A DNA stretch of 64,000 nt from an uncultured Pelagibacteraceae bacterium (GTDB lineage Bacteria; Pseudomonadota; Alphaproteobacteria; Pelagibacterales; Pelagibacteraceae): contig CABZXO010000004.1 in assembly GCA_902529645.1 (NCBI GenBank), positions 9,226-73,225 on the forward strand, read 5' to 3'. Both the position numbers and the translations under genes were made by a program. Below are positions 10,746-61,019 of this stretch, piece by piece. Within the stretch, counting starts at the first letter, position 1, and the number at the start of each line of letters is the position of its first letter. The notes beneath the pieces were generated by a model that ran no database searches, was not told where the DNA came from, and was given only the letters and a program-made list of their open reading frames with translations.

Positions 10746-12451
10746 TGGCTAAAATTTCTAGAGCAGCTTATGCAGATATGTATGGGCCTACAACAGGAGA
10801 CAAAGTAAGGCTCGCAGATACTGAATTAATTATTGAGGTTGAAAACGATCTAACAACTTATGGTGAAGAGGTAAAATTTGGTGGTGGAAAAGTAATAAGA
10901 GATGGGATGGGTCAATCTCAAATTAGTAGAAAAAAAGGAGCTGCAGATACAGTTATAACTAATGCTTTAATAGTTGATGTAAATGGAATTTATAAAGCTG
11001 ATGTTGGTTTAAAGGATGGAAAAATATTTGAAATTGGTAAAGCTGGTAATCCAGATACTCAATCTAAAGTAAATATTATTATTGGTCCAGGAACAGAGAT
11101 AATTGCAGGTGAAGGAAAAATTTTAACAGCAGGGGGTTTTGACAGTCATATTCATTATATATGTCCCCAACAAATTGATGATGCTTTACATTCAGGTATT
11201 ACAACTATGTTAGGAGGAGGAACTGGACCGGCTCACGGTACACTTGCAACAACTTGTACACCTGGACCATGGCACATACAAAGAATGATTCAATCTGCTG
11301 ATGGTTTTTCAATGAATTTAGCTTTTGCTGGTAAAGGAAATTCTTCTTTACCAGAAGGTCTTCAAGAACAAATTCTAGCAGGAGCTTCAGCTTTAAAATT
11401 ACATGAGGATTGGGGAACCACTCCTGGAGCAATTGATAATTGTTTAAATATTGCTGACAAAAACGATGTACAAGTAATGATTCACACAGACACTTTAAAT
11501 GAAAGTGGGTTTGTAGAAAATACTATCAAAGCAATTAATAAAAGAACTATTCATGCTTTTCATACAGAAGGTGCTGGCGGTGGACATGCACCAGATATAA
11601 TTAAAGTTTGTGGAGAAGAGTATGTTATTCCTTCCTCAACAAATCCAACCAGACCATATACAGTTAATACAATAGAAGAACATTTAGATATGCTAATGGT
11701 GTGTCACCATCTCGATAAATCTATTCCAGAGGATGTTGCATTTGCTGAAAGTAGAATAAGAAGAGAAACAATAGCAGCAGAAGATATTCTTCATGATATG
11801 GGTGCTTTTTCAATTATTGCTTCAGATAGTCAGGCAATGGGTAGAGTTGGAGAAGTAATAATTAGAACATGGCAGACAGCACATAAAATGAAAGTCCAAA
11901 GAGGAAGTTTACCAGAGGAAAAAGGGGATAATGATAATTTTAGAGTTAAAAGATATTTAGCAAAATACACAATTAATCCTGCAATTGCTCATGGGATTTC
12001 AAAACATATTGGCAGTATTGAAAAAAATAAACGTGCAGATTTAGTTTTATGGGACCCAGCATTTTTTGGTGCCAAACCAGAGATGATATTAATAGGCGGA
12101 AGTATAGCTTGTGCTCAAATGGGAGACCCGAATGCATCAATTCCAACCCCTCAACCAGTATACACTAGACCAATGTTTTCATCATTTGGAACTTCTTTAG
12201 AAAAATCTTCAGTAATTTTTACAAGCAAACTAGCTATTGAAAAGAATTCATTAAAAGATGCAAATATTAGAAAAGACTTGTTACCTGTAGAAAACACAAG
12301 GGCCATTTCTAAAAAAGATATGATTTTAAATAATAAGTGTCCGAAAATTGAGGTTAATCCTGAGACTTACGAGGTAAAAGCTGATGGTGAAATAATTACC
12401 TGTGAACCTGCTAAAGAACTTCCTTTGGCACAAAGATATTTTATGTTTTAG
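10745..12451 (+). CDS. ureC: Urease alpha subunit
   Basis: Ni ligands [30 protein letters not shown]; flap MVCHH. Confidence 0.99.
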
Positions 12452-18984: not shown

Positions 18985-20273
18985 AAAAAATATTTATCAT
19001 AGTAATTACATCATTATTATATTTCAGTAATGCTTTAGCAGTTACGCTTCTAGATGCATTAAATTTAACTTATCAAAATAATATTCAATTAAATGCTGAA
19101 AGGGAAAATATAAAAGTTTCCGAGGAGGATATTAAAATTTCTGAAGCTGATTACAAACCGTCTGTTACACTAAGTAGTTCTAAAAGTTTTGAAAATACCA
19201 ACACGTTAAAAAATCAAAATGGTGGCACAGCTTCAAAAAATGATGTTGATCCATTTACAACATCTTTGAAGATAGAACAAACAATACTAGATTATGGCAG
19301 AGATCTTACGCTTGAAAAAAATAAAGTTTCATTGACTTTAGCTAAAGCACAATTAATTAAAAAAGAACAAGAAGTATTGCATGATGCTATAAATGCATTT
19401 ACAAATTTAATTTTATCGAGAGAAAAACTTAATATTAATTCAAAAAATTTAAATCTTCTAATTAGACAGGTTGAAAACGATAAAATTAGAAGAGATAGAG
19501 GGCAAATTACAAATACAGATTTGGCACAGTCAGAATCCTCTCTTGCTGGCGCACAGGCACAATTTGCAAAGTCAAAAAGTGATTTATTAATTAGCAAACT
19601 TAATTATGAAAATATTATAGGAAAAATAAATGATCCTAATAATTTAAAGAAAAGTTCAAGTGCAATTGTTAATATTCCAAAAACTTTAAGTGAAGCAATA
19701 AATTTATCAAAACAGAATAATCCAGATATACTGATTGCAAAACTTGATTTAGAAAAGTCTGAAAAAGATATAGCAATTTCAGAATCGGATTTAAAACCAA
19801 CTGCTTCAGTATCATTAGAGAAATCGTACACTGACGATCTTAGCTCGACTGTTGCAGAAAGAGATAAAGATATATTAAAAGCAACAATTAGTTGGCCTTT
19901 TTATTCTGGTGGAAAAAAGAAATATAAAATTAGCAAAAATACAAATTTAACCAATAGAAAGAGATTATTATTAGATCATGCTGTTAAAAATAATGAAACT
20001 AACGTTGCAAGTGCGTGGGCAAGCTTAGAGTCATCTAAAAGTTTTTTAAATTCTGTGAATGTTCAATTAAAATCAGCAGAAATTGCCAACGAGGGAATTA
20101 AAGCAGAGTATGAAAGAGGATCGAGAACAACTTTAGACGTTATTCAATCAAATTCACTCTTACTTTCTGCACAACTTTCTTTAGTAAATTCTGAGAGAGA
20201 TTATTTAATGGCTCAATATAACTTGCTTAAATCAGTAGGCCTACTTAATAGTCTATATCTAAAACTTAAGTAA
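18981..20273 (+). CDS. tolC: TolC-family outer membrane efflux protein
   Basis: Signal peptide; duplicated OEP repeats; WPFYSGG, YERGSRTTLDV. Confidence 0.9.
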   Translation: MKKIFIIVITSLLYFSNALAVTLLDALNLTYQNNIQLNAERENIKVSEEDIKISEADYKPSVTLSSSKSFENTNTLKNQNGGTASKNDVDPFTTSLKIEQTILDYGRDLTLEKNKVSLTLAKAQLIKKEQEVLHDAINAFTNLILSREKLNINSKNLNLLIRQVENDKIRRDRGQITNTDLAQSESSLAGAQAQFAKSKSDLLISKLNYENIIGKINDPNNLKKSSSAIVNIPKTLSEAINLSKQNNPDILIAKLDLEKSEKDIAISESDLKPTASVSLEKSYTDDLSSTVAERDKDILKATISWPFYSGGKKKYKISKNTNLTNRKRLLLDHAVKNNETNVASAWASLESSKSFLNSVNVQLKSAEIANEGIKAEYERGSRTTLDVIQSNSLLLSAQLSLVNSERDYLMAQYNLLKSVGLLNSLYLKLK

Positions 20274-20316
20274 ATATTTGATTTTTTTGGTCTAAAAATA
20301 ATTATATTGCCAATGA

Positions 20317-20331
20317 GAACAAAATGTGTAC
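20317..20331. promoter_or_regulatory. LexA (SOS) box of recA
   Basis: GAAC-AAAATGT-GTAC (GAAC-N7-GTAC variant) about 50 nt upstream of recA. Confidence 0.8.
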
Positions 20332-49446: not shown

Positions 49447-52215
49447 TTAACTAACTTCAGCTTGATTTTCTTTTGGTTTAACTTCTGTTTTAAATTGATT
49501 AGAGATTTTTTGTACTTCAACAGAAGATACTTTGTATTCTGCACACATTGTTTCTTCATCTTTACCATGACCTGTAACCATATTAACCATATGTTCCGGG
49601 AAATGGAACGTAGTAAACACAATTCCTTCTTTAACTTTATCTGTAACCTCAACTTTAAGAGCAACCTCACCTCTACCTGAATAAAGTCTTCCGATATCAC
49701 CAGTATTTAAATCTCTATAAGCTGCATCTTTAGGATGAATTAATAAAACATCTTCATCAACAATGTTTATATTTTTTGTTCTTCTAGTCATTGTTGCTGC
49801 GTTGTAATGTTGTAAAACTCTACTAGTAGTTAAAATCAAAGGATAGTCTTTTTGATTAGCTTCAATTTCTGATGATTCTTTCCAATCAAAGTTTTTAAGT
49901 CTACCTTTTCCTAATTTAAATGTTTCTTTATGTAAAATTTTTGTATCAGTTCCATCTTCTTGAACTGGCCATTGTAATCCAAATTTTCCAAGTCTATCTC
50001 TGGTAACTCCCTTAAAGAAAGGAACTATATCAGCAATTTCTTCTAGAACTTGATCTGCATCATAAGTTGGCTGATCAAATCCTAACTTCTGCATCATCTC
50101 AGTTACAATTAATCCATCAGGTTTAGTGCCTGGAAGAGGTGGTACAGCTCTGTTTACTCTTTGAATTCTTCTCTCAGTATTTGTAAAAGTTCCATCTTTT
50201 TCTAAGAAAGTAGTACCTGGAAGAACAACAGTTGCTAATTTTGCTGTTTCACTCATAAATATTTCCTGTACAACTAAAAGTTCTAAAGAGTTCATAGCTT
50301 CAATAACATGTGCGCTATTAGGATCAGTTTGAACAATGTCTTCTCCTATGATCCATAAACCTTTTAATTCCTTGTTTATTGCAGCTTCAAACATTTGAGG
50401 AATTTTTAATCCTGGTTTAGTCGGATGTGTTACTCCATATTTTTCAGTGTAAAATTCTTGATGCTTTTCATCAGCCACAGGAAAATATCCAGCACCTTGG
50501 TGTGGTTGACATCCCATATCTGCTGCACCTTGAACATTGTTTTGACCTCTTAAAGGATTAACCCCGACGCCTTTTCGTCCAATGTTTCCAGTAATCATTG
50601 CTAGATCTGCAATTAACATTACAGTTTTAGATCCTTGTTCGTGTTCAGTAACTCCAAGACCATGAAACTCCATTGAATTTTTAGCAGTTGCATATGCAAT
50701 TGCTGCTTCTTTAACTAGTTGTTTATCTACACCAGCTACTTTTGCTAAATGATCAACATCTTGTCTTTCAATTTCTTTTAAGAAATTATCAAAACCTTCA
50801 GTTCTATCTCTAACAAAATCTGCATTATAAAGTTTTGATTTAATAATAAAGTGCAACATCATATTTAGAACTGCAACGTTAGTTCCAGGTCTTAGTTTAA
50901 TATGATAATCAGCAAGTTTAGCTAGTTCAGTTGTAACTGGATCAAGTACAATTAATTTTTTACCTTTCATTACTTGCTGTTTTATTTTTGCACCTGTAAC
51001 AGGATGAGCATTTGTTGGATTAGCTCCAATTACCAAAAATAAATCTGCATGATAAATATCTTCTGTAGAGTTAGTTGCTGCTCCAGTCCCAAAAGTTTGT
51101 TGCATTCCCCAAGCTGTTGGTGAATGACAAATTCTTGCACAACAGTCTACACTGTTTGTTCCAACTGCAGCTCTAATCATCTTTTGGAAAACATAATTTT
51201 CTTCATTCGTACATCGTGCAGAAGAAATTCCAGCAAAAGCATCTGGACCATTATCTTTTGTAATTCTGTTCATTTCTTTTTTTATAAAATCATAAGCTTC
51301 ATCCCAAGAAGCTTCTTCAAATTTTCCATTTCTTTTAATTAAAGGTGTTTTTAATCTGTCTGGATGATCATAAAAACTAAATGCATATCTTCCTTTAATA
51401 CACGTATGTCCAGCATTAACTTCTGTTTGTTTAGGTGTATCAATAGCCACAACCTTATCATCTTTAATCGAAGCCTCTAAATTACAACCAACACCGCAGT
51501 ATGAACAAGTTGTTCTAACTTTTTTATCTACTGCAGCAGATTTTGATTGAAAAACATCTGAAATAGCATCTGTTGGACAAGTGTGAGCGCATGCACCACA
51601 AGAAACACATGAACTATCTCCAAACATCATGTCGTTATCAGTTGTTATTCTTGACTCAAATCCTCTTCCACTCATTGTAAGTACAAACGAACCTTGAATT
51701 TCATCACAAGCTCTGACACATCTTCCACAATTGATACAATTGTCTAAATTCATTCTCATATAATCATGAGATGTATCTCTAGGAATACCTTTATGTTGTT
51801 TTGGACTATTATATCTATGATCATTAATTCCTAGATCATTAGCAACAGTTTGAAGTTCACAATTATTATTTACCTCACAGCTGTCACATTCCATTGGATG
51901 GTCTGTTAATACTAATTCAACAATATTTTTTCTTAGACTTTTTAAACTTTCATTAGACGTGAAAATATGCTGATTTTCAGCAACTGGAGTATGGCAAGAA
52001 GCAACTACTCTTGTAGGACCATCTTTTTCTAAAGCAACTTCGACCGAACATACTCTACAAGCTCCATAAGGTGCTAAATTTGGATCATCACATAAAGTAG
52101 GAACTTTTTTTTCACCTACATAGCTTTTTACAAATTTTAAAATAGATGAATGATTTGGTCCGATTTCATACGGTTTTCCATCAATATAAGCAATTTTTCT
52201 TTTCTCTGAACTCAT
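49447..52215 (-). CDS. fdhF: NAD-linked formate dehydrogenase alpha subunit (Mo-bisPGD, Cys ligand)
   Basis: N-terminal 2Fe-2S and 4Fe-4S motifs; CSYCGVGC, CARICHSP, LRGQNNVQGAAD. Confidence 0.95.
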   Translation of the reverse strand: MSSEKRKIAYIDGKPYEIGPNHSSILKFVKSYVGEKKVPTLCDDPNLAPYGACRVCSVEVALEKDGPTRVVASCHTPVAENQHIFTSNESLKSLRKNIVELVLTDHPMECDSCEVNNNCELQTVANDLGINDHRYNSPKQHKGIPRDTSHDYMRMNLDNCINCGRCVRACDEIQGSFVLTMSGRGFESRITTDNDMMFGDSSCVSCGACAHTCPTDAISDVFQSKSAAVDKKVRTTCSYCGVGCNLEASIKDDKVVAIDTPKQTEVNAGHTCIKGRYAFSFYDHPDRLKTPLIKRNGKFEEASWDEAYDFIKKEMNRITKDNGPDAFAGISSARCTNEENYVFQKMIRAAVGTNSVDCCARICHSPTAWGMQQTFGTGAATNSTEDIYHADLFLVIGANPTNAHPVTGAKIKQQVMKGKKLIVLDPVTTELAKLADYHIKLRPGTNVAVLNMMLHFIIKSKLYNADFVRDRTEGFDNFLKEIERQDVDHLAKVAGVDKQLVKEAAIAYATAKNSMEFHGLGVTEHEQGSKTVMLIADLAMITGNIGRKGVGVNPLRGQNNVQGAADMGCQPHQGAGYFPVADEKHQEFYTEKYGVTHPTKPGLKIPQMFEAAINKELKGLWIIGEDIVQTDPNSAHVIEAMNSLELLVVQEIFMSETAKLATVVLPGTTFLEKDGTFTNTERRIQRVNRAVPPLPGTKPDGLIVTEMMQKLGFDQPTYDADQVLEEIADIVPFFKGVTRDRLGKFGLQWPVQEDGTDTKILHKETFKLGKGRLKNFDWKESSEIEANQKDYPLILTTSRVLQHYNAATMTRRTKNINIVDEDVLLIHPKDAAYRDLNTGDIGRLYSGRGEVALKVEVTDKVKEGIVFTTFHFPEHMVNMVTGHGKDEETMCAEYKVSSVEVQKISNQFKTEVKPKENQAEVS

Positions 52216-53870
52216 TAATTATCTTTAACCATATCATTTTTCATTTCATCCCCAAAGTACTTTAGAATGTTCTGAATAGGAGTGGGTATAGCTCCGCATA
52301 AAGCACATAAACAACCTTTTTTCATTGTAACAAGTAATTCTTCAAGCAATTTCAAAGGTATTTTGGCAGTTTTCTTTTTAGCTTGGTCAAACATTTCTTT
52401 ACCTCTGTAAGATCCAAGTCTACCAGGAAAACATTTTCCACATGATTCTTCAGCAGAAAATTCAAAAAGATGATGAATGTATTCAGCCATAGAAAAATCT
52501 TTAGGAATACTCACCACACTAGCATGACCTAACATGAAACCTTTTGCAGTAAACTCCTGAAAATCTAAATTAAGATTTTCTATTTCACTTAATGGAACCA
52601 CACCACCAAGTGGCCCACCAATTTGAAAAGCTTTTAATGGTTCTTTATATCCTCCACCAATTTCATTAAATATTTTTTTCATTGGAGTACCCATATCAAT
52701 TTCATATACACCTGGGTTGTTAAAGAAACTATCCAAACAAACTAATTTAGTACCTGCTGATTTTTTATTTCCTATAGATGAAAACTTTTCAGAACCATTT
52801 ATTAAAATTCCAGTTGCAGCTGCTAAAGTTTCAACATTGTTAACAACAGTTGGTTTTTTATATAATCCCTCTGTAACAGGAAAAGGAGGTCTAACATCAA
52901 CTTCTGCTCTTCTTCCTTCAATAGATGCAATCAAAGCTGTTTCTTCTCCGCAGATATATGCACCTTGACCAATACAAATTCCTAAATCGAATGAAAAATC
53001 TGTTCCTAAAATATTTTCACCTAATAATCCTAATTTTTTAAGTTCATTTATACTACCATTTAATGCTTCAATTGATTTTGGATATTCTCCTCTTATATAC
53101 AAAACACCCTCATCACTCCCAATTACATAACCACATATTACCATTCCAAAAATAACTTTTAAAGGCTGGTCTTCTAATAAATATCTATCTGAGAAAGCAC
53201 CAGAGTCGCCTTCATCTGCATTACAGATAACATATTTTTTATCTCCTTTTGCTTTACTGCAGAAATCCCATTTCATTCCTGTTGGAAAACCTGCACCACC
53301 TCTTCCTGTTAAATTTGAGTCTAACAATGATTTAACTATTTCTTTTTTATCTGATTTTAAAAATTTACTTAATTGATCTTTGAATTGGTCTGTAGAAGAA
53401 AGTTTATCATCCATTAAGAAACTTGTTGTCGCATAACTCTTAGAAAAAAATTTTTCTTGCTTAATTTCCTCACCTTTTAAAATCTGATCAATTTTTTCTA
53501 TATCTTTACCAGCATAATTTTCTCCATCATAGTGAAATGCGTGGTTTTCATAACAATGACCTAAGCAGAACATTTCCCCAACTTTGTCATCACCCAGTTT
53601 TTCCTTGAGTTTATCTTTTAATTTGTCTTGAGTACCTGCACACATGCATGCACTACCGTTACAAACGAACGCTTTTTTTTCTCTATGAGAAGGTCTTAAA
53701 AATTCATAAAAGGATTCTGCACCATGGAGAGTTGAAACACCTAGGTTATGTTTTTTGGCAATTTCTTTAATATCTTTTGGACTATCGCTTAAGGTATTTT
53801 CTGAGATTTGCTTAAATAGGTTATCTTTTAAGCCTATTCTGCCTGATAAATTACTTATATTTTTTGACAC
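52215..53870 (-). CDS. Formate dehydrogenase diaphorase subunit (NuoE-like plus NuoF-like fusion)
   Basis: CNGSAC, CLGHC; GRGGAGFPTG, NADEGD, YICGEETAL, ESCGKCFP; GTG start. Confidence 0.9.
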   Translation of the reverse strand: MSKNISNLSGRIGLKDNLFKQISENTLSDSPKDIKEIAKKHNLGVSTLHGAESFYEFLRPSHREKKAFVCNGSACMCAGTQDKLKDKLKEKLGDDKVGEMFCLGHCYENHAFHYDGENYAGKDIEKIDQILKGEEIKQEKFFSKSYATTSFLMDDKLSSTDQFKDQLSKFLKSDKKEIVKSLLDSNLTGRGGAGFPTGMKWDFCSKAKGDKKYVICNADEGDSGAFSDRYLLEDQPLKVIFGMVICGYVIGSDEGVLYIRGEYPKSIEALNGSINELKKLGLLGENILGTDFSFDLGICIGQGAYICGEETALIASIEGRRAEVDVRPPFPVTEGLYKKPTVVNNVETLAAATGILINGSEKFSSIGNKKSAGTKLVCLDSFFNNPGVYEIDMGTPMKKIFNEIGGGYKEPLKAFQIGGPLGGVVPLSEIENLNLDFQEFTAKGFMLGHASVVSIPKDFSMAEYIHHLFEFSAEESCGKCFPGRLGSYRGKEMFDQAKKKTAKIPLKLLEELLVTMKKGCLCALCGAIPTPIQNILKYFGDEMKNDMVKDN

Positions 53871-53888
53871 AAATACCCTTTTATTAAT

Positions 53889-54728
53889 TTAGTCCACAAT
53901 AACTTTTTTGTTATTTGTGTAAATATTAAAACTGTCCCTCTTTACGAAACCAACAAGGGTAATGTCAAATTTATTCGCTAAATCGATAGCAAGACTAGTT
54001 GGCGCACCAACGCCAATCATTATACCTATATCTGTCATCAAAACCTTTTGAACCAATTCAAAATTTAGTCTGCCTGAGCATGTTATAAATTGGTTTTTAG
54101 GATCAATTTGGTTGCTCTTTAATGCACAACCAATAAGTTTATCTAGAGCATTATGTCTTCCCACATCTTCTCTGACAGCAATCAATTCTCCATTACTATT
54201 AAAAAGACCACTAGCATGAATTCCACCTGTTTTACTAAATTCTGATTGGCCTTCTTTCAATGTGTTTGGCGATTTAACAATTACTTCTTTTTTGATTTTG
54301 GGTTCTAATGGATTTGTTTTATTTTTTTTTATTATTTCTAGAGCATCAAGTGAAGATTTTCCACATACACCACAAGATGAATTAGTTAAAAAATCTCTTT
54401 TTATTTTTGAAATATTCACATTTTCAGAATTATTTAAAGTTGCTAATATTTTATTTTGAATATTGTATTGACCAACTTTATCTCCGTAACTTTCTATTGA
54501 ATCAATATCATCAATATTTTTTATAATTTGTTCATTATATAAAAATCCTCTTACAAGATCCTCATCATCACCTGGAGTTCTCATTGTTATAGATAAACTT
54601 TGATTTATCAATTTATTAGACTCATTATATTTTAATGAAATCTCCAATGGTTCTTCAATTGAAATTAAATCATCTATATTCTCAAACTTATTAGATGAAT
54701 ATTTTAAAACTTTGTATTTAGAATTCAT
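53889..54728 (-). CDS. fdhD: Formate dehydrogenase sulfurtransferase FdhD
   Basis: SSCGVCG, TGGIHAS, EDVGRHNALDKLIG, APTSLA. Confidence 0.96.
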   Translation of the reverse strand: MNSKYKVLKYSSNKFENIDDLISIEEPLEISLKYNESNKLINQSLSITMRTPGDDEDLVRGFLYNEQIIKNIDDIDSIESYGDKVGQYNIQNKILATLNNSENVNISKIKRDFLTNSSCGVCGKSSLDALEIIKKNKTNPLEPKIKKEVIVKSPNTLKEGQSEFSKTGGIHASGLFNSNGELIAVREDVGRHNALDKLIGCALKSNQIDPKNQFITCSGRLNFELVQKVLMTDIGIMIGVGAPTSLAIDLANKFDITLVGFVKRDSFNIYTNNKKVIVD

Positions 54729-55650: not shown

Positions 55651-56259
55651 ATGGATCATAACAATATTTTAGGCACTGTGCTAGCAGGCGGTAAGTCACA
55701 AAGATTTGGAGAAGATAAATCCCAAGTAAAGTTAGCTGGTAAATTGTTAATTGATCACATGTTGACTGAAATTATTAATGAATTCAAGGAACTCTTAATA
55801 GTATCAAATAATAAAATTAGTTTTCATAACTCAGAAAAAATTTCAATAATTAAAGATTTTGAAAAAGGTCTTGGTCCGTTAGGTGGAGTTTTATCAGCTA
55901 TGAAATGGATAAAAGAATACCAAAAAGACTACGACTGGATAGCAACTTTCCCTGTTGATACACCATTTTTTAAGAGACAAATACTTAAAGATTTTATTCA
56001 GAATATAAATTTTAATGAAAGTGATTTATTTTTTATTAAGTCAAACAACACACGACATAATATATTTGGCTTATGGTCCATTAATTTACTAGATAAGTTA
56101 GAGAAGGATTTAAACAATGGAGAAAGAAAAGTAGAGTTGTGGGCTAATAATACTGGGGTAAAAATAATTAATATGGAGTTTTCAAATAATGATCCTTTCT
56201 TTAATATAAATACAAAAGAAGATTTAAAAAAAGCTGAAGAAATACTTAAAAATGATTAG
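55651..56259 (+). CDS. mobA: Molybdenum cofactor guanylyltransferase
   Basis: LAGGKSQRFGEDK, GPLGG, PVDTPF, FFNINT. Confidence 0.94.
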   Translation: MDHNNILGTVLAGGKSQRFGEDKSQVKLAGKLLIDHMLTEIINEFKELLIVSNNKISFHNSEKISIIKDFEKGLGPLGGVLSAMKWIKEYQKDYDWIATFPVDTPFFKRQILKDFIQNINFNESDLFFIKSNNTRHNIFGLWSINLLDKLEKDLNNGERKVELWANNTGVKIINMEFSNNDPFFNINTKEDLKKAEEILKND

Positions 56260-57496
56260 TTACGAAAAATCTAAGACAATTTTAAAAAAAGCAAAAATTA
56301 AAATTAAAGAGGAAACTATAAAGAGTATAAATTCTCTGAATAGAGTAGTTTCTACCAATATTTATTCTAATATAGATTATCCTGCAGGGAATAATGCTGC
56401 ATTTGATGGTTACGCAATTAATTCAAAAGATACTAATGGATTAAAAAAAAAATTCCCAAAAAAATTTAAAATTATTGGCTCAATTGCAGCAGGAATGAAA
56501 CCATTTAAAAAAAAGATAAAAAAATTTTATACTGCAGAAATAATGACTGGAGGGATTATTCCAAAGGGCTTTGACACAATTATTCCCATAGAACAAATAA
56601 TTTTTGCTCCTAATAAAAAATATATTTTAATTGACCAAAAAATAAAAAAATTCGATCACGTTAGGTTTGCAGGTTCAGATTATAGAAAAGGGGAGGTTGT
56701 AATAAAAAAAAATACAATTATTCAACCAAACCATATTTTAGCTTTTAAAAGTTTAGGTATTAAACAAATTAAAGTAAAAAAAAAAATAAACATATTATTT
56801 TTTTCGACAGGAAACGAAATATCAGACAAAGACAATATTCCAAATTGGATGGTAAGAAATTCCAACACACACTATATAAAAAACTTAAATCAAAATTTTT
56901 TATTTAATTTTAAAAGTGGGAGTATATTGAGAGATAATCATCAAAATATTTTAAAACAAAAAATAAATAAATTAATCAAATCTAAAGATGATATTATTAT
57001 TACTTCAGGCGCAGTGTCTGCAGGTAAGTTTGATTTTATACCTGATGTTGTTAAAAAATTTAAGTTATCAAGCTACTTTAAAAGTGCTGCAATAAGGCCT
57101 GGAAAACCAATTATGTTTGCAAAAATTAAAGGTAAAGAAAAAGCAATATTTGGACTCCCTGGAAACCCAATCTCCTCAGCTGCATGTTTTAGATTTTTTG
57201 TAATTCCATATATTTTAAATGCTCTAGGATTATCAGAAGAAAAATCAATTAAAGCTATTTTGACGAACAGTTTTAATAAAAAAATTAATTTCACAAGATT
57301 TGTAAAGAGCCAATTAAGCACAACTAAGAATGGAAAATTAAATGTTGAAATTTTAAAAGGGCAAGAGTCTTTTAGAATTAAATCATTTGTAAAATCAAAT
57401 ATTTGGGTTTTGTTACCAGTAGGTAAATCAAAATTTAAAAAAGGAGATATCGTTGATTGTTTTTTCCCCAACCTTTCAAATCAAAATTTAGTTTAG
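56252..57496 (+). CDS. moeA: Molybdopterin molybdenumtransferase
   Basis: AAFDGYA, IMTGG, STGNE, TSGAVSAG, IRPGKP, GLPGNP. Confidence 0.95.
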   Translation: MISYEKSKTILKKAKIKIKEETIKSINSLNRVVSTNIYSNIDYPAGNNAAFDGYAINSKDTNGLKKKFPKKFKIIGSIAAGMKPFKKKIKKFYTAEIMTGGIIPKGFDTIIPIEQIIFAPNKKYILIDQKIKKFDHVRFAGSDYRKGEVVIKKNTIIQPNHILAFKSLGIKQIKVKKKINILFFSTGNEISDKDNIPNWMVRNSNTHYIKNLNQNFLFNFKSGSILRDNHQNILKQKINKLIKSKDDIIITSGAVSAGKFDFIPDVVKKFKLSSYFKSAAIRPGKPIMFAKIKGKEKAIFGLPGNPISSAACFRFFVIPYILNALGLSEEKSIKAILTNSFNKKINFTRFVKSQLSTTKNGKLNVEILKGQESFRIKSFVKSNIWVLLPVGKSKFKKGDIVDCFFPNLSNQNLV

Positions 57497-57545
57497 AAAC
57501 GTATTTTTGTTGTAGAAAATTCTATTTACAATTAGATTTCTCATT

Positions 57546-58451
57546 ATGTTGCAGTTGAGAAATCCAAGAATAGCCATCCCAGTTGTACTTTTTGCTGGTC
57601 TATTATGGTCGTTTGGCCCATTAGTAGTTCGATATATGGATAATCCTCAATTGGTACCTTGGCAGTATATTTTTGGCAGAGGTTTAACAATTTTCATCTT
57701 ATTAAATCTTTATTTATTTTTTGAGGAGGGAAAAAATTTTTACAAAAACTATTATAAAATAGGTTTATCTGGAGTAATCGGTGGATCTGGATTGGGGATC
57801 GCTATGATTACATTCATTTATTCAATTACAAATACTAGCGCTGCAGTTACATTACTTTGTTTAGCAGCAATGCCTTTTTTTACAGCATTATTGGCATTTT
57901 TATTTTTAAGAGAAAAAATTTCTTTAAATGTGTGGATATCAATAATAATTGCAACAGTTGGTATCATTATTATGGCACTTGGAAGTACTGGTGAAAAATC
58001 ATTAATTGGTTTTGTATTTGGTTTAACTTCCTCAATTGGTTTCTCAATTTTTTCTGTAACTCTAAGATGGAGAAAAGAAACACCAAAATTCACAACAGTA
58101 GCTTTTGCAGGTTTCTTTTGTTTTGTGTTTGCGACAATTATGATTTTATCAAACAACTTAGTTTTCTTTTCATCTAGTTATAACGGGACTTTATTTTCTT
58201 TGCATGGAACACTAGTTTGTTTTGGTTTAATTTTATATTCAATTGGATCTAAAGCAATACCAGCGGCAGAATTGACTTTATTATCTTTAACTGAAGTTGT
58301 AGGTGGAATTTTTTGGGTTTGGTTACCATTATTTGGTATTAATGAAGTGCCATCCACAAATACTATAATCGGTGGTTTTTTTCTTTTTGTATCTATATTT
58401 TATTACAGTTTAATAATGAGATGGAACAAAAGATATATTGCTTTAAATTAA
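57546..58451 (+). CDS. DMT (EamA) family transporter
   Basis: About 10 TM; FLREKI, LTEVVGGIFWVW; 1 nt from the creatinase start. Confidence 0.88.
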   Translation: MLQLRNPRIAIPVVLFAGLLWSFGPLVVRYMDNPQLVPWQYIFGRGLTIFILLNLYLFFEEGKNFYKNYYKIGLSGVIGGSGLGIAMITFIYSITNTSAAVTLLCLAAMPFFTALLAFLFLREKISLNVWISIIIATVGIIIMALGSTGEKSLIGFVFGLTSSIGFSIFSVTLRWRKETPKFTTVAFAGFFCFVFATIMILSNNLVFFSSSYNGTLFSLHGTLVCFGLILYSIGSKAIPAAELTLLSLTEVVGGIFWVWLPLFGINEVPSTNTIIGGFFLFVSIFYYSLIMRWNKRYIALN

Positions 58452-58452
58452 T

Positions 58453-59670
58453 ATGGAACGGCCAGATTTTTTTGAACTTAAAAACGGTGAAAAAGTAAAA
58501 TTACCATTTACTGATAAAGAATATAACGATCGAGTAAGTAAACTTAGATCAATGATGGACCAAAATGGTCTTAATATGGTTATCTTAACCTCAATGCATA
58601 ACGTTGCATATTACACAGGTTTTATTTATTGTTCTTTTGGTAGACCATACGGATGTGTGATAACTCAAAGTAAAATTTCAACAATTTCAGCTAATATTGA
58701 TGCAAGTCAACCTTGGCGTAGATCTCACTGTGATAACGTTATTTATACTGATTGGAAAAGAGATAATTTTTTAAGAGCAATTGTTTCAATTATTGGAAGA
58801 GATGAACCTCCAAAAAATATTGGAATAGAAAATGATCATGTCACGTTAGATATGCGAGAAAAAATAGGGTCTATTTTTACTTTCTCTATTTTTAGTGATG
58901 TTTCAAAAGATCTAATGAAACTTAGAATGATTAAATCGAATGAAGAAATTGAGATCATCAAAAATGGCGCAAGAATTGCAGACATTGGTGGTGAAGAAAT
59001 AGTTAAAAATATTAGAGAAGATAATACAGAGATCGAAGTAGCAATTGCAGCAAGAGATAGAATGGAAAGAGAAATTGTTAAAAGTTATCCAGGGGCAGAG
59101 TATATGGACACTTGGGTATGGTTTCAATCTGGTATTAACACAGATGGAGCTCACAATCCAAAGACTAATAGAAAATTAGTTAAAGGAGATATTTTATCTT
59201 TAAATACTTTTCCAATGATCTCAGGATACTACACTGCGCTAGAGCGAACTTTATTTTTAGATTATGCTAATGATGAATCACTTAAAGCATGGGAAGCAAA
59301 CGTAAAAGTGCATAAGCGAGGATTAGAATTGATTAAACCAGGTGTTAAATGTTCAGATATTTGTCATGAGTTAAATGAATTGTTTGCTCAACTTGGTTAC
59401 CTTCATTATAGAACTTTTGGTTACGGACATTCATTTGGTATGCTTTCTCACTTTTATGGAAGAGAAGCAGGTTTAGAATTAAGAGAAGACATTGACACTA
59501 TTCTTGAGGAAAACATGGTGGTTTCTATGGAACCAATGATAATGATTCCAGAGGGTAATCCTGGTGCAGGTGGATATAGAGAACACGATATTTTGGTGAT
59601 TGGTAAAGATGGAGTAGAAAATATTACAAAATTTCCTTTCGGCCCTGAACATAATATTATAAAAAACTAA
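58453..59670 (+). CDS. Creatinase (creatine amidinohydrolase, M24 fold)
   Basis: YCSFGRPYG, WFQSGINTDGAHN, GYYTALERT, RTFGYGHSFG, GREAGLELREDI, SMEPM, GGYREHD. Confidence 0.92.
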   Translation: MERPDFFELKNGEKVKLPFTDKEYNDRVSKLRSMMDQNGLNMVILTSMHNVAYYTGFIYCSFGRPYGCVITQSKISTISANIDASQPWRRSHCDNVIYTDWKRDNFLRAIVSIIGRDEPPKNIGIENDHVTLDMREKIGSIFTFSIFSDVSKDLMKLRMIKSNEEIEIIKNGARIADIGGEEIVKNIREDNTEIEVAIAARDRMEREIVKSYPGAEYMDTWVWFQSGINTDGAHNPKTNRKLVKGDILSLNTFPMISGYYTALERTLFLDYANDESLKAWEANVKVHKRGLELIKPGVKCSDICHELNELFAQLGYLHYRTFGYGHSFGMLSHFYGREAGLELREDIDTILEENMVVSMEPMIMIPEGNPGAGGYREHDILVIGKDGVENITKFPFGPEHNIIKN

Positions 59671-59675
59671 TCCTT

Positions 59676-60791
59676 ATGAATGAGAATAAAACTATTGTTA
59701 ATAGTTGGAATGAGTGGGATCCGTTAAAACATGTAATTGTTGGTAGAGCGGATGGCACATGTATACCTGCGCCTGAACCAGCATTAGATGCAAAAGTTCC
59801 AGAAGACAGTGATATGCGAGGTCAGTTTGGACCAAGAACCAAAGATACTATCGATAAAGCAAATGAATTATTAGATAACTTTTCAAAAATTCTTGAAAAA
59901 AGAGGCATTAAAGTTGATCGACCAACGCCAATAAATTTTAATCAAAAAACGTCCACACCTGATTGGGAAGCTGAAACAATGTTTGGCTGCATGCCACCAA
60001 GAGATGTTTTGTTAACAGTGGGTAATGAGATCTTGGAAGCTACAATGAGTTACCGATGTCGTTGGTTTGAATATTTATGTTACCGACCACTTTTAAAAGA
60101 TTATTATAATCAAGATCCTAATATGAGACACGAGTCTGCTCCAAAGCCAAGATTAACGGATGCAGATTATAGAAAAGATTATTTATCTGATAAAATAGGC
60201 GTTCAAAAAAGATTAGAGTGGACTGAAAAAAAATATTTTGTAACTACTGAGGAAGAACCATTGTTTGATGCAGCAGATGTATTAAGATTTGGTAAAGATT
60301 TAGTTGTTCAGCATGGATTTACAACTAATTTAAAAGGAATTGATTGGTTAAAGCGACATTATAAAAATCATAGAGTTCATGCAGTTAACTTCCCAGGTGA
60401 TCCTTATCCAATTCACATTGATGCAACTTTTACACCAATAAAAGAGGGTTTAATTATCAATAATCCGCAAAGAAGACTCCCTAAGGAACAGAGAAAATTA
60501 TTTGAGGGCAATGGTTGGGAAATATTAGACAGTGCTCAACCAGCACATAACGAACCGCCACCATTATGTTATTCATCAACTTGGTTATCAATGAATGTTT
60601 TAGTATTAGATCCTAAGACTGTATGTGTGGAAAAAAGTGAAATTTATCAAGCTGAACAATTAGATAAGTTAGGAATGGAAGTTATACCGGTTGAACTAAG
60701 AGATGCATATGCTTTTGGAGGAGGCCTTCATTGCTGTACAGCTGATGTTTATCGAGAAGGCGATTTAAAAGACTATTTTCCAAAACAATAA
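59676..60791 (+). CDS. Amidinotransferase (L-arginine:glycine amidinotransferase family)
   Basis: SWNEWDPL, PRD, FDAAD, HIDAT, GGLHCCT (Asp-His-Cys triad). Confidence 0.92.
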   Translation: MNENKTIVNSWNEWDPLKHVIVGRADGTCIPAPEPALDAKVPEDSDMRGQFGPRTKDTIDKANELLDNFSKILEKRGIKVDRPTPINFNQKTSTPDWEAETMFGCMPPRDVLLTVGNEILEATMSYRCRWFEYLCYRPLLKDYYNQDPNMRHESAPKPRLTDADYRKDYLSDKIGVQKRLEWTEKKYFVTTEEEPLFDAADVLRFGKDLVVQHGFTTNLKGIDWLKRHYKNHRVHAVNFPGDPYPIHIDATFTPIKEGLIINNPQRRLPKEQRKLFEGNGWEILDSAQPAHNEPPPLCYSSTWLSMNVLVLDPKTVCVEKSEIYQAEQLDKLGMEVIPVELRDAYAFGGGLHCCTADVYREGDLKDYFPKQ

Positions 60792-61019
60792 TTAATTTGG
60801 ATTTTGTTTTAAAAGTTCAATATATTTAATAACATCATTATATTTTTCATCAGGAATATCTTTGTAGCTTGCATTGAATTTGCTTTTTACACAAATAGCA
60901 ACATGAGCATAGGGGTTTCTTCCTTTTGGGTGATTTGGGTGGTCAGGTAATTGCCCCACCAAATAATCGCCAGCTTCCTGAATAATTTTCCAGAGTTTCT
61001 GCGACTTTTCTGGGCTCAT
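60792..61019 (-). CDS. Small hypothetical protein with ORF6C-like C-terminus
   Basis: 75 aa; KSKFNASYKDIPDEKYNDVIKYI resembles the ORF6C motif (recognised by eye). Confidence 0.6.
   Translation of the reverse strand: MSPEKSQKLWKIIQEAGDYLVGQLPDHPNHPKGRNPYAHVAICVKSKFNASYKDIPDEKYNDVIKYIELLKQNPN

Follow-up and report, generated by a model that had tools for sequence, protein, structure and literature searches.

The nearest described relatives of the genes discussed here are vertebrate AGAT with the cyanobacterial CyrA and SxtG, and the creatinases of the bacterial creatinine/creatine pathway. AGAT catalysis runs freely in both directions and takes guanidinoacetate together with ornithine, and we know of no characterised AGAT for which creatine serves as a donor. 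SAR11, the most abundant surface-ocean heterotroph, is nitrogen-limited, relies on external glycine or glycine precursors and is a conditional glycine auxotroph. The core genes of SAR11 subgroup Ia already include a creatinase (PMC3686209), and the description of the C1 and methylated-compound oxidation genes of SAR11 (Sun et al. 2011) mentions neither creatine, a DMT transporter nor an amidinotransferase (PMC3160333). When seawater communities were fed labelled glycine betaine, 13C3,15N1-creatine was formed from sarcosine, for which the authors invoke ‘an unidentified enzyme’ (PMC9321204). We found no paper linking an amidinotransferase to SAR11, nor one in which guanidinoacetate was measured in seawater.

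Layout of the operon and its neighbourhood

The DNA analysed here is a stretch of 64,000 nucleotides from an uncultured Pelagibacteraceae bacterium (the window). It contains an operon of three co-directional genes on the + strand, coding for an EamA/DMT transporter, a creatinase and an AGAT-family amidinotransferase (hereafter AGAT). The features of the locus are:

55651–57496, + strand: mobA and moeA, molybdenum cofactor genes identified by family matches, co-directional with the operon and upstream of it
57507–57537, + strand: conserved upstream box TTGTTGTAG...TAGAT, putative operon promoter
57546–58451, + strand: DMT transporter ORF, 301 aa
58453–59670, + strand: creatinase ORF, 405 aa
59676–60791, + strand: AGAT-family amidinotransferase ORF, 371 aa
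60792–61019, − strand: convergent 75-aa ORF, conserved, marking the 3′ boundary of the operon

A first-pass annotation had described the three genes as packed 1 and 5 nt apart, and the ORF coordinates and the stop and start codons bear this out: the transporter gene ends in TAA at 58449–51 and the creatinase ATG follows at 58453, leaving 1 nt, while the creatinase TAA at 59668–70 is separated by 5 nt from the AGAT ATG at 59676. The three genes are presumably co-transcribed. The genes in and near the operon include no methyltransferase and none for secondary metabolism, in agreement with the earlier statement that a guanidinoacetate methyltransferase and secondary-metabolite genes are absent from the neighbourhood. 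Farther upstream, past mobA and moeA, lies a divergent FDH/FdhD/HPP/SufU block, with the FDH subunits and FdhD at 49447–54728. The mobA and moeA genes serve this adjacent formate dehydrogenase and are outside the conserved unit; in about 39 of 71 loci they are not found upstream of the transporter gene, their place being taken by a divergent sufU-like gene. The convergent ORF of 75 aa lies downstream of the operon, as does a dienelactone-hydrolase-like gene. The 75-aa protein is 66–90% identical, and its ORF abuts AGAT or a threonine aldolase gene, whichever is last, in nearly all loci examined; it is kept also in genus g4, where AGAT sits elsewhere. The protein has no Pfam match, and an ORF6C lead was weak.

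The conserved box just before the transporter gene is probably the operon's own promoter. The composite pattern TTGTTGTAG...TAGAT occurs once in the window, compared with 0.01 occurrences expected. Of 71 Pelagibacteraceae loci, 43 have TTGTTGTAG (≤1 mismatch) starting 38–40 nt 5′ of the transporter ATG; the figure for random 83-nt windows is 1.8%. The box is present with either upstream neighbour, moeA or the divergent sufU-like gene. As the signal of a genome-wide regulon the 9-mer was rejected, since it is not enriched (29 sites versus 40 for the control). Neither the window (searched to E 1) nor eight related loci yielded a riboswitch or other RNA element, and consensus promoter and terminator scans were uninformative (34 promoter-like sites versus 40 expected).

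Identity of the three proteins

Pfam domains and full-length matches to solved proteins showed that the genes had been correctly identified in the first-pass annotation. The second protein carries Creatinase_N (PF01321, E 1e-12) and Peptidase_M24 (PF00557, E 7e-32) domains and matches creatinases from end to end (P. putida 1CHM, E 2e-158; 7YTO, 5e-155; 1KP0, 1e-145), whereas the best prolidase reached only 5e-25 and the ectoine hydrolase DoeA 3e-11. Six creatine-site residues are identical to those of 1CHM, namely F62 and R64 (SFGRPY), H232 (DGAHNP), E262 (ALERT), R335 (YGREAG) and E358 (SMEPM); in P. putida numbering, we take His232 to be catalytic and Phe62, Arg64, Glu262, Arg335 and Glu358 to be substrate-binding. 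P. putida CreA (1CHM), together with the Arthrobacter and Alcaligenes creatinases, is the closest described counterpart of the protein. Judged by these features, the protein is a true creatinase (EC 3.5.3.3), predicted to hydrolyse creatine to sarcosine and urea (creatine + H2O → sarcosine + urea). Since every creatine-site residue is kept, a guanidinoacetase role is not suggested.

The third protein aligns over its full length with human AGAT (1JDW, E 9e-86, residues 8–368) and also matches SxtG (2e-64), StrB1 (6e-50) and HsvA, while Pfam returns only a weak C-terminal ADI match. In 81 Pelagibacter sequences, the catalytic triad C353/H247/D198 (human Cys407-His303-Asp254), the guanidino-binding residues D110 and D249 (human Asp170 and Asp305) and the carboxylate-site residues R266, S300 and S301 (human Arg322 and Ser354/Ser355) are invariant. 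These matches place the protein in the AGAT family of amidinotransferases, with a pentein fold, and we propose that it acts as a guanidino-acid:ornithine amidinotransferase. The flap departs from that expected of a strict EC 2.1.4.1 enzyme: human Asn300 and Met302 correspond to Tyr244 and Ile246, which are invariant in a clade of SAR11, Rhodobacterales and Rhizobiales sequences, and the flap differs in every subfamily. Because of this replacement, specificity for glycine and guanidinoacetate cannot be assumed. The Tyr/Ile flap is compatible with that specificity all the same, since CyrA, a true Arg:Gly enzyme, also departs from the vertebrate flap residues. NCBI records often mis-annotate members of the clade as “serine/threonine protein kinase”.

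The transporter matches Pfam EamA at residues 10–144 (E 6e-17); its second EamA repeat falls short of the score that Pfam reports, and TIGR00950 aligns to residues 77–282, below its own cut-off. Ten hydrophobic segments correspond to 10 predicted membrane helices, as in a two-repeat EamA architecture. The nearest solved chain is LicB (PDB 7B0K), a choline importer of the DMT superfamily with the same 10-helix EamA architecture, which shows that DMT proteins are able to import small charged amines; similarity to LicB is very weak, at E 2e-4, and tells nothing about the substrate. The second EamA gene of the genome, which adjoins a GpuA-like hydrolase, was discarded as a close paralog, being only 26% identical over 107 residues.

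Distribution across genomes

AGAT is present in 36/36 same-genus genomes, and the operon arrangement recurs in 34 of 36 complete ones; the gene arrangement is far from chance. A contig scan with a narrow alignment returned Pelagibacteraceae only and gave 80 loci (contexts in distant taxa were obtained separately). Among these 80, 47 contain DMT–AGAT alone and 28 DMT–creatinase–AGAT, so that the transporter gene is tied to AGAT in about 75. The gaps are similarly tight in 75 further loci, and in the majority of the 47 pair loci no more than 11 nt separate the transporter gene from AGAT. We conclude that the stable core is the DMT–AGAT pair, with creatinase as an optional insert exactly between the two. 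The three-gene pathway proposed in the first-pass annotation is therefore upheld in its tight, conserved clustering (the trio occurs in 28/80 loci) but not in its composition, since creatinase is optional and the transporter is more widespread than both enzymes. Co-occurrence of the three genes is seen in the 34/36 same-genus genomes that keep the arrangement; 47/80 loci lack creatinase.

Creatinase is absent from two genomes that are both 99% complete (G073 and G182), and it occurs alone, without AGAT, in genera g4, g2 and g9. In G149 and G013 the order is reversed to AGAT–creatinase and the genes are still adjacent. On a quick tree of 81 AGATs we count about nine gains or losses of creatinase, a weakly supported number, and no AGAT residue tells DMT–AGAT from DMT–creatinase–AGAT operons in these 81 sequences. 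An L-threonine aldolase gene (identified by 1V72, E 9e-111) follows AGAT at 1–5 nt in 28/80 loci. In g4 an azurin-like gene occupies the slot downstream of the transporter gene, and in g4 and g2, AGAT and/or creatinase adjoin a cluster for ectoine-type catabolism and ABC uptake.

Orthologs of the transporter are found in 36/36 genomes of g1, 30/35 of g2, 20/24 of g4, 5/6 of g9 and 5/37 of g5. In g2 and g5 the ortholog is the last gene of a DMGDH-ETF-ETFQO operon beside sox genes, and in AGAT-free SAR11 genera the DMGDH-ETF operon with the transporter gene is convergent with soxG and soxA. Since the transporter gene ends a dimethylglycine/sarcosine dehydrogenase–ETF operon in AGAT-free genera, it is tied to N-methylglycine catabolism. 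The DMT family is older and more widespread than either creatinase or AGAT.

Beyond SAR11, AGAT orthologs of Photobacterium (57% identity) and Streptomyces (54%) both adjoin importers, the types being EamA and Na:solute symporter genes and a binding-protein-dependent ABC importer. In other Alphaproteobacteria the orthologs are 72–84% identical and stand alone, with no transporter or creatinase nearby; creatinase is lacking in 3 of 5 non-SAR11 genomes with an AGAT ortholog. The clade is extremely well conserved, with 76–84% identity between SAR11 and Rhodobacterales/Rhizobiales, yet its occurrence is patchy, with about 6 carriers among the 396 alphaproteobacterial genomes sampled. More distant members of the family were set aside as a guide, because their contexts are unrelated (a sugar/aminoglycoside-like cluster, a virus-like contig, a hydantoinase cluster) and uninformative on the SAR11 clade.

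Proposed function and comparison with known systems

In our judgement the chances are about even that the operon serves uptake and scavenging of N-substituted glycines (creatine, guanidinoacetate), with AGAT running backwards to arginine plus glycine or sarcosine; we infer the substrates, the direction of the reaction and the polarity of transport. The DMT protein, a proposed importer of N-substituted glycines, would bring in creatine and/or guanidinoacetate and perhaps sarcosine-type compounds too. Creatinase would convert creatine to sarcosine and urea, and the sarcosine oxidases would convert sarcosine to glycine and a C1 unit that would end at the neighbouring formate dehydrogenase. The urea could be used by this strain's urease, encoded elsewhere in the window; most members of the genus have no urease. 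AGAT, working by a Cys-amidino ping-pong mechanism and opposite to animal creatine synthesis, would transfer the amidino group of the imported guanidino acid to ornithine, which should be available since the genome carries argG (two soxD copies are also present). The products would be arginine and glycine with guanidinoacetate as donor, or arginine and sarcosine with creatine as donor, and the cell would gain the glycine that SAR11 needs as well as two nitrogen atoms otherwise lost as urea. Since the urease alpha gene is found in only 5/61 same-genus genomes and AGAT in 36/36, transamidination would be the only way in which most strains keep the amidino nitrogen. Reverse transamidination for arginine and glycine, one of two alternatives put forward in the first-pass annotation, is thus favoured by context (the transporter in about 75/80 loci, the glycine-forming threonine aldolase in 28/80, and the importers beside AGAT in Photobacterium and Streptomyces), once its three-gene framing is corrected. 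Several points weigh against the scavenging reading: the Tyr/Ile flap, the absence of creatine from the donors known for AGATs, the many exporters among EamA proteins together with the weak similarity to LicB, the solitary AGAT orthologs of other Alphaproteobacteria, the failure to find a riboswitch or other regulator that would indicate a ligand, and our failure to find a seawater measurement of guanidinoacetate.

A more specific version, which we think unlikely, gives the SAR11 amidinotransferase specificity for creatine and sarcosine (creatine + ornithine ↔ sarcosine + arginine). In that case transporter and AGAT would by themselves form a complete system for capturing all three creatine nitrogens without urease, and the SAR11 enzyme, through its ping-pong exchange of sarcosine with creatine, would be the ‘unidentified enzyme’ of the field tracing.

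Alternatively, there may be no shared pathway: in a compact genome, the slot after the transporter gene would simply collect short genes that scavenge glycine and nitrogen independently of one another (AGAT, creatinase, threonine aldolase, azurin), and the donor/acceptor pair of AGAT would be unrelated to creatine. This would explain why the slot has no fixed content (AGAT, alone or with creatinase; threonine aldolase present or absent; the azurin-like gene in g4), why g2 and g5 have the transporter without either enzyme and why AGAT orthologs are solitary in other Alphaproteobacteria, and the divergent flap residues leave specificity open. However, the close DMT–AGAT spacing is difficult to reconcile with such a collection, as is the persistence of the pair across the genus; creatinase is inserted precisely between the two genes and not elsewhere, its adjacency to AGAT outlasts reversal of the gene order, and every add-on enzyme yields glycine or a glycine precursor. 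We consider this explanation doubtful.

Somewhat less probable again is net synthesis, in which AGAT makes guanidinoacetate from arginine (or creatine from sarcosine) as a solute or exported metabolite, the transporter may be an exporter and creatinase, in the loci that have it, recycles the product. The absence of GAMT beside the operon (at the level of the locus) and of a phosphagen kinase in the genome argues against it, and to export or store a compound with three nitrogens fits badly with a streamlined, nitrogen-limited cell; moreover, with a creatinase encoded alongside to break the product down, the cell would run a futile cycle, and it is importers, including a binding-protein-dependent ABC system, that adjoin AGAT in other taxa. 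On the other hand, the characterised members of the family (human AGAT, CyrA, SxtG) have been shown in no role other than forward chemistry, exporters are numerous among EamA proteins, and acceptor glycine could come from the downstream threonine aldolase. The 13C3,15N1-creatine formed from sarcosine in field tracing (PMC9321204) also fits synthesis.

Least probable, and improbable in our view, is a generalised form of the other alternative of the first-pass annotation, a carrier-cycled bypass of arginase in which AGAT moves the amidino group of arginine to glycine or sarcosine and creatinase or a GpuA/GbuA-like ureohydrolase frees urea and regenerates the carrier (net arginine → ornithine + urea): none of the three ureohydrolases of the genome, all agmatinase/GpuA-like, reaches the rocF arginase cut-off, this strain has urease and creatinase and AGAT are adjacent in both gene orders, but the obligate co-occurrence that a bypass predicts is contradicted by enzymes that are often apart, as in the loci, genera and non-SAR11 genomes listed above, two nitrogen atoms would be thrown away in a genus mostly without urease, no ornithine cyclodeaminase was found to consume the ornithine, and it would be simpler for one of the resident ureohydrolases to evolve into an arginase. 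The Arginase family occurs in all AGAT-positive genera as agmatinase/GpuA-like members only, which neither supports nor kills the bypass.

Should scavenging of N-substituted glycines be the correct reading, nearly every Pelagibacter cell would have a one-enzyme route from animal and algal guanidino acids to arginine and glycine that needs no urease, a flux of dissolved organic nitrogen absent from current models. The physiological role of an AGAT-type enzyme would be opposite to the textbook one, and the strong conservation of the AGAT clade would be explained, as would its frequent mis-annotation. The same reading may account for the field observation of creatine labelled via sarcosine. Cultured strains differ naturally in operon content.

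Compared to human AGAT/GATM (EC 2.1.4.1; 1JDW/1JDX), the SAR11 enzyme is homologous over its full length and has the same Cys-His-Asp triad, the same two guanidino-binding Asp residues and the same carboxylate-binding Arg and Ser residues; it differs in the flap and by two residues inserted after R322. Unlike vertebrate AGAT and CyrA/SxtG, it is accompanied by no partner methyltransferase or toxin cluster; its gene lies in a proposed uptake/catabolic operon, and we propose the opposite physiological direction. The downstream sarcosine oxidase route of the bacterial creatinine/creatine pathway is present in the SAR11 genome, whereas, in contrast to the Pseudomonas-type pathway, no creatininase lies beside the operon, the transporter and amidinotransferase genes flank creatinase instead, and the urease for urea use is missing in most of the genus. 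The operon directly adjoins the fdh-fdhD-mobA-moeA cluster that Sun et al. (2011) describe among the SAR11 gene sets for oxidation of C1 and methylated compounds. The transporter gene itself belongs to the dmgdh-etf-sox region in other SAR11 genera.

Gene content and surroundings of the DMT–creatinase–AGAT operon

The operon consists of three genes, flanked on its own strand by molybdenum-cofactor-type genes mobA and moeA and facing a small convergent ORF:

upstream of DMT, + strand: mobA and moeA (moeA–DMT gap of 49 nt)
57546-58451, + strand: EamA/DMT protein (DMT, ORF1; Pfam E 6e-17)
58453-59670, + strand: creatinase (ORF2; full-length alignment to solved creatinases)
59676-60791, + strand: AGAT-family amidinotransferase (AGAT, ORF3; full-length alignment to human AGAT)
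60792-61019, − strand: 75-aa ORF, convergent with AGAT and abutting its stop codon

An ORF listing of the window bore out the positions that the first-pass annotation had given for the three ORFs, all on the + strand, as well as the spacing of 1 and 5 nt, the junctions reading TAA-n-ATG and TAA-nnnnn-ATG, respectively. Ten hydrophobic segments were counted in ORF1. ORF2 aligned end-to-end with the creatinases of Pseudomonas putida, Alcaligenes and Actinobacillus (E 2e-158 to 1e-145), far above the best prolidase (E 5e-25), and Phe62, Arg64, His232, Glu262, Arg335 and Glu358 are all retained in the printed alignment. Residue numbers are those of the reference creatinase and AGAT in the literature, mapped onto the printed alignments. 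By these comparisons ORF2 is a true creatinase. ORF3 matched human AGAT end-to-end (E 9e-86) and, more weakly, SxtG, HsvA and StrB1. In its alignment the catalytic triad (Cys, His, Asp) is intact, as are the two aspartates that bind the guanidino group and the Arg and Ser of the carboxylate site; the flap residues Asn300 and Met302, which help set specificity in human AGAT, are replaced by Tyr and Ile. The source organism is a Candidatus Pelagibacter, and the closest named relative of its AGAT gene is found in strain HIMB1748 (97% identity).

Beyond mobA and moeA, genes on the opposite strand encode a SufU-like protein, an HPP protein, FdhD and both large subunits of formate dehydrogenase. Sun et al. 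2011 (PMC3160333) depicted this mobA/moeA/FdhD/formate dehydrogenase region as a cluster for C1 oxidation; neither creatine nor an amidinotransferase appears in their paper. On the other side, a dienelactone-hydrolase-like gene comes after the 75-aa ORF. This ORF is 66–90% identical over nearly all Pelagibacteraceae loci examined; it matched no Pfam family and gave a weak feature-based lead to ORF6C. Its first 20–30 residues are found again in other ORFs nearby.

Conservation of the operon and history of the transporter

Gene counts were made in 200 genomes of the family, which are relatives rather than independent samples and many of which are incomplete; among the 36 that belong to the window's genus, AGAT is present in all 36 and creatinase in 34, always adjacent. 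A wider sample covered 80 Pelagibacteraceae loci at species level: AGAT comes immediately after DMT in 47 and creatinase stands between the two in 28, with intergenic gaps mostly below 12 nt. What is conserved in this wider set is the coupling of DMT and AGAT; creatinase between them is optional. No creatinase remnant was found in the two-gene form, and no AGAT alignment column separated two- from three-gene operons. On a quick AGAT tree with weak support, creatinase presence required about nine changes. A gene for L-threonine aldolase (1V72, E 9e-111) lies 1–5 nt after AGAT in 28 of the 80 loci; it is missing from the source genome.

In two other genera, g4 and g2, AGAT and creatinase occur singly or together in reversed order (AGAT–creatinase). 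Their slot there (L015, L017, L019, L021 and L028–L032) lies beside a EutA-like racemase-fold gene, with a DoeA/EutD-like M24 hydrolase and an ABC importer of an ectoine-type cluster as further neighbours. Some SAR11 genomes also carry a second, 31%-identical amidinotransferase (L025:6858-8042, L027:7188-8369) next to polysaccharide deacetylase and formyltransferase genes; this enzyme is probably part of glycan modification, a pathway with no link to the DMT–creatinase–AGAT operon.

DMT orthologs (53–63% identical) are common in genera without AGAT and creatinase (30/35 genomes in g2, 5/37 in g5). In all three such loci examined (L126, L128 and L129, from genomes G001, G125 and G105), DMT closes an operon for a dimethylglycine/sarcosine-dehydrogenase-type enzyme (DMGDH/SARDH-like), ETF beta, ETF alpha and ETF-QO; soxG and soxA lie convergent to this operon. 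Since DMT ends a DMGDH/SARDH–ETF operon, it is a candidate sarcosine/dimethylglycine-type transporter. In g4 the order is moaA–moaE–DMT–azurin, and next come the 75-aa ORF and the hydrolase known from the window; in nearly all loci this ORF adjoins whichever gene ends the DMT operon, including those of g4, where AGAT lies elsewhere. The DMT contexts thus leave DMT plus the 75-aa ORF as the conserved frame. The transporter is older than the AGAT and creatinase enzymes, and AGAT, creatinase and threonine aldolase are add-ons behind it. The theme common to the DMT contexts is N-methylglycine/glycine and C1 metabolism, the exception being the azurin-like add-on of g4.

Upstream of DMT, 43 of 71 loci carry a box, TTGTTGTAG, that begins 38–40 nt ahead of the ATG, compared with 1.8% of random windows; it is present with either moeA or a divergent gene upstream. 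The window copy lies at 57507, and the composite motif was found a single time in the window, where 0.01 occurrences would be expected. Counted over the source genome, the 9-mer of the box is not a genome-wide motif. We predict that the box is the probable promoter of the operon itself.

AGAT relatives outside SAR11 and guanidino metabolism in the source genome

The AGAT clade is strikingly well conserved in sequence and yet sparse outside SAR11, occurring in about 6 of 396 alphaproteobacterial genomes sampled. Orthologs of Rhodobacterales and Rhizobiales are 76–84% identical, and their genes stand alone, creatinase being absent from three of five carrier genomes. NCBI labels these orthologs "serine/threonine protein kinase" (P0011, P0028, P0086, P0106, P0111; 76–82% identical), a wrong name for a pentein-fold amidinotransferase; the JGI label for the same clade is glycine amidinotransferase. 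A Photobacterium ortholog (57% identity) adjoins an EamA transporter and a Na:solute symporter, and one from Streptomyces (54%) adjoins a binding-protein-dependent ABC importer. Farther out in the family, the gene contexts are unrelated. One of the distant homologs at L123 (P0151) and L122 (P0142) follows hydantoinase A/B and DAO-type oxidase genes, a setting reminiscent of N-methylhydantoin/creatinine catabolism; the contig of the other, which also carries OTU, RING-finger and N6-methyltransferase genes, resembles the genome of a large eukaryotic virus.

The source genome carries argG and two soxD copies; neither a phosphagen kinase nor an ornithine cyclodeaminase was found in it. Its three ureohydrolases are all agmatinase- or GpuA/GbuA-like, none arginase-like. 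Two of them (L037:3765-4724, − strand, corresponding to 161788-162606 of contig C1; and L038:3918-4904, − strand) best match P. aeruginosa 3-guanidinopropionase/guanidinobutyrase (3NIP, E 2e-84 and 1e-42). One adjoins an aldehyde dehydrogenase gene, and the other is oriented divergently to a second EamA transporter gene, with a ProV-type ABC gene close by. The former type was seen in g1 (the window's genus), g4, g9 and g16, the same genera as AGAT plus creatinase, and not in g2, g5, g12, g14 or g17. A separate cluster (L039:3501-6621, contig C17) of agmatinase, 1,9-bis(guanidino)-5-aza-nonane synthase (NF002699, 583 bits, above cut-off) and a decarboxylase points to a putative agmatine-based homospermidine route.

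Predicted role of the amidinotransferase

The creatinase step of the predicted pathway can be regarded as secure. For AGAT, we favour action on imported guanidino acids, toward arginine and glycine or sarcosine, because of its persistent coupling to a transporter, partner enzymes that yield glycine, importer neighbours in other phyla and the catabolic islands of sister genera. The window also carries urease:

about 10751-11104: urease alpha (19976-20329 of source contig C4)

Urease alpha exceeds the cut-off in 5 of 61 same-genus genomes, many of them incomplete, so the window's urease is unusual for the genus and hydrolysis would cost most strains two of the three nitrogen atoms in creatine. 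Transamidination would instead keep the amidino nitrogen. Less probably, the slot behind DMT just gathers independent scavenging genes. Net synthesis of a guanidino compound by AGAT is likewise a less likely reading: it would suit a nitrogen-limited, streamlined cell poorly and be futile beside creatinase. The arginase bypass offered in the first-pass annotation requires AGAT and creatinase together and is contradicted by their distribution.

Our literature search, within the library covered, found no paper linking an amidinotransferase to SAR11 or Pelagibacter, or describing an amidinotransferase–creatinase gene pair; creatinase is already listed as a core gene of SAR11 subgroup Ia (PMC3686209). 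Boysen et al. 2022 (PMC9321204) added labelled glycine betaine to seawater, recovered 13C3,15N1-creatine and concluded that creatine arose from sarcosine via "an unidentified enzyme" or reversible creatinase. An AGAT accepting sarcosine and creatine, by ping-pong exchange, is a conceivable but rather unlikely source of that 13C3,15N1-creatine; AGAT adjoins creatinase in SAR11, the main betaine consumer.
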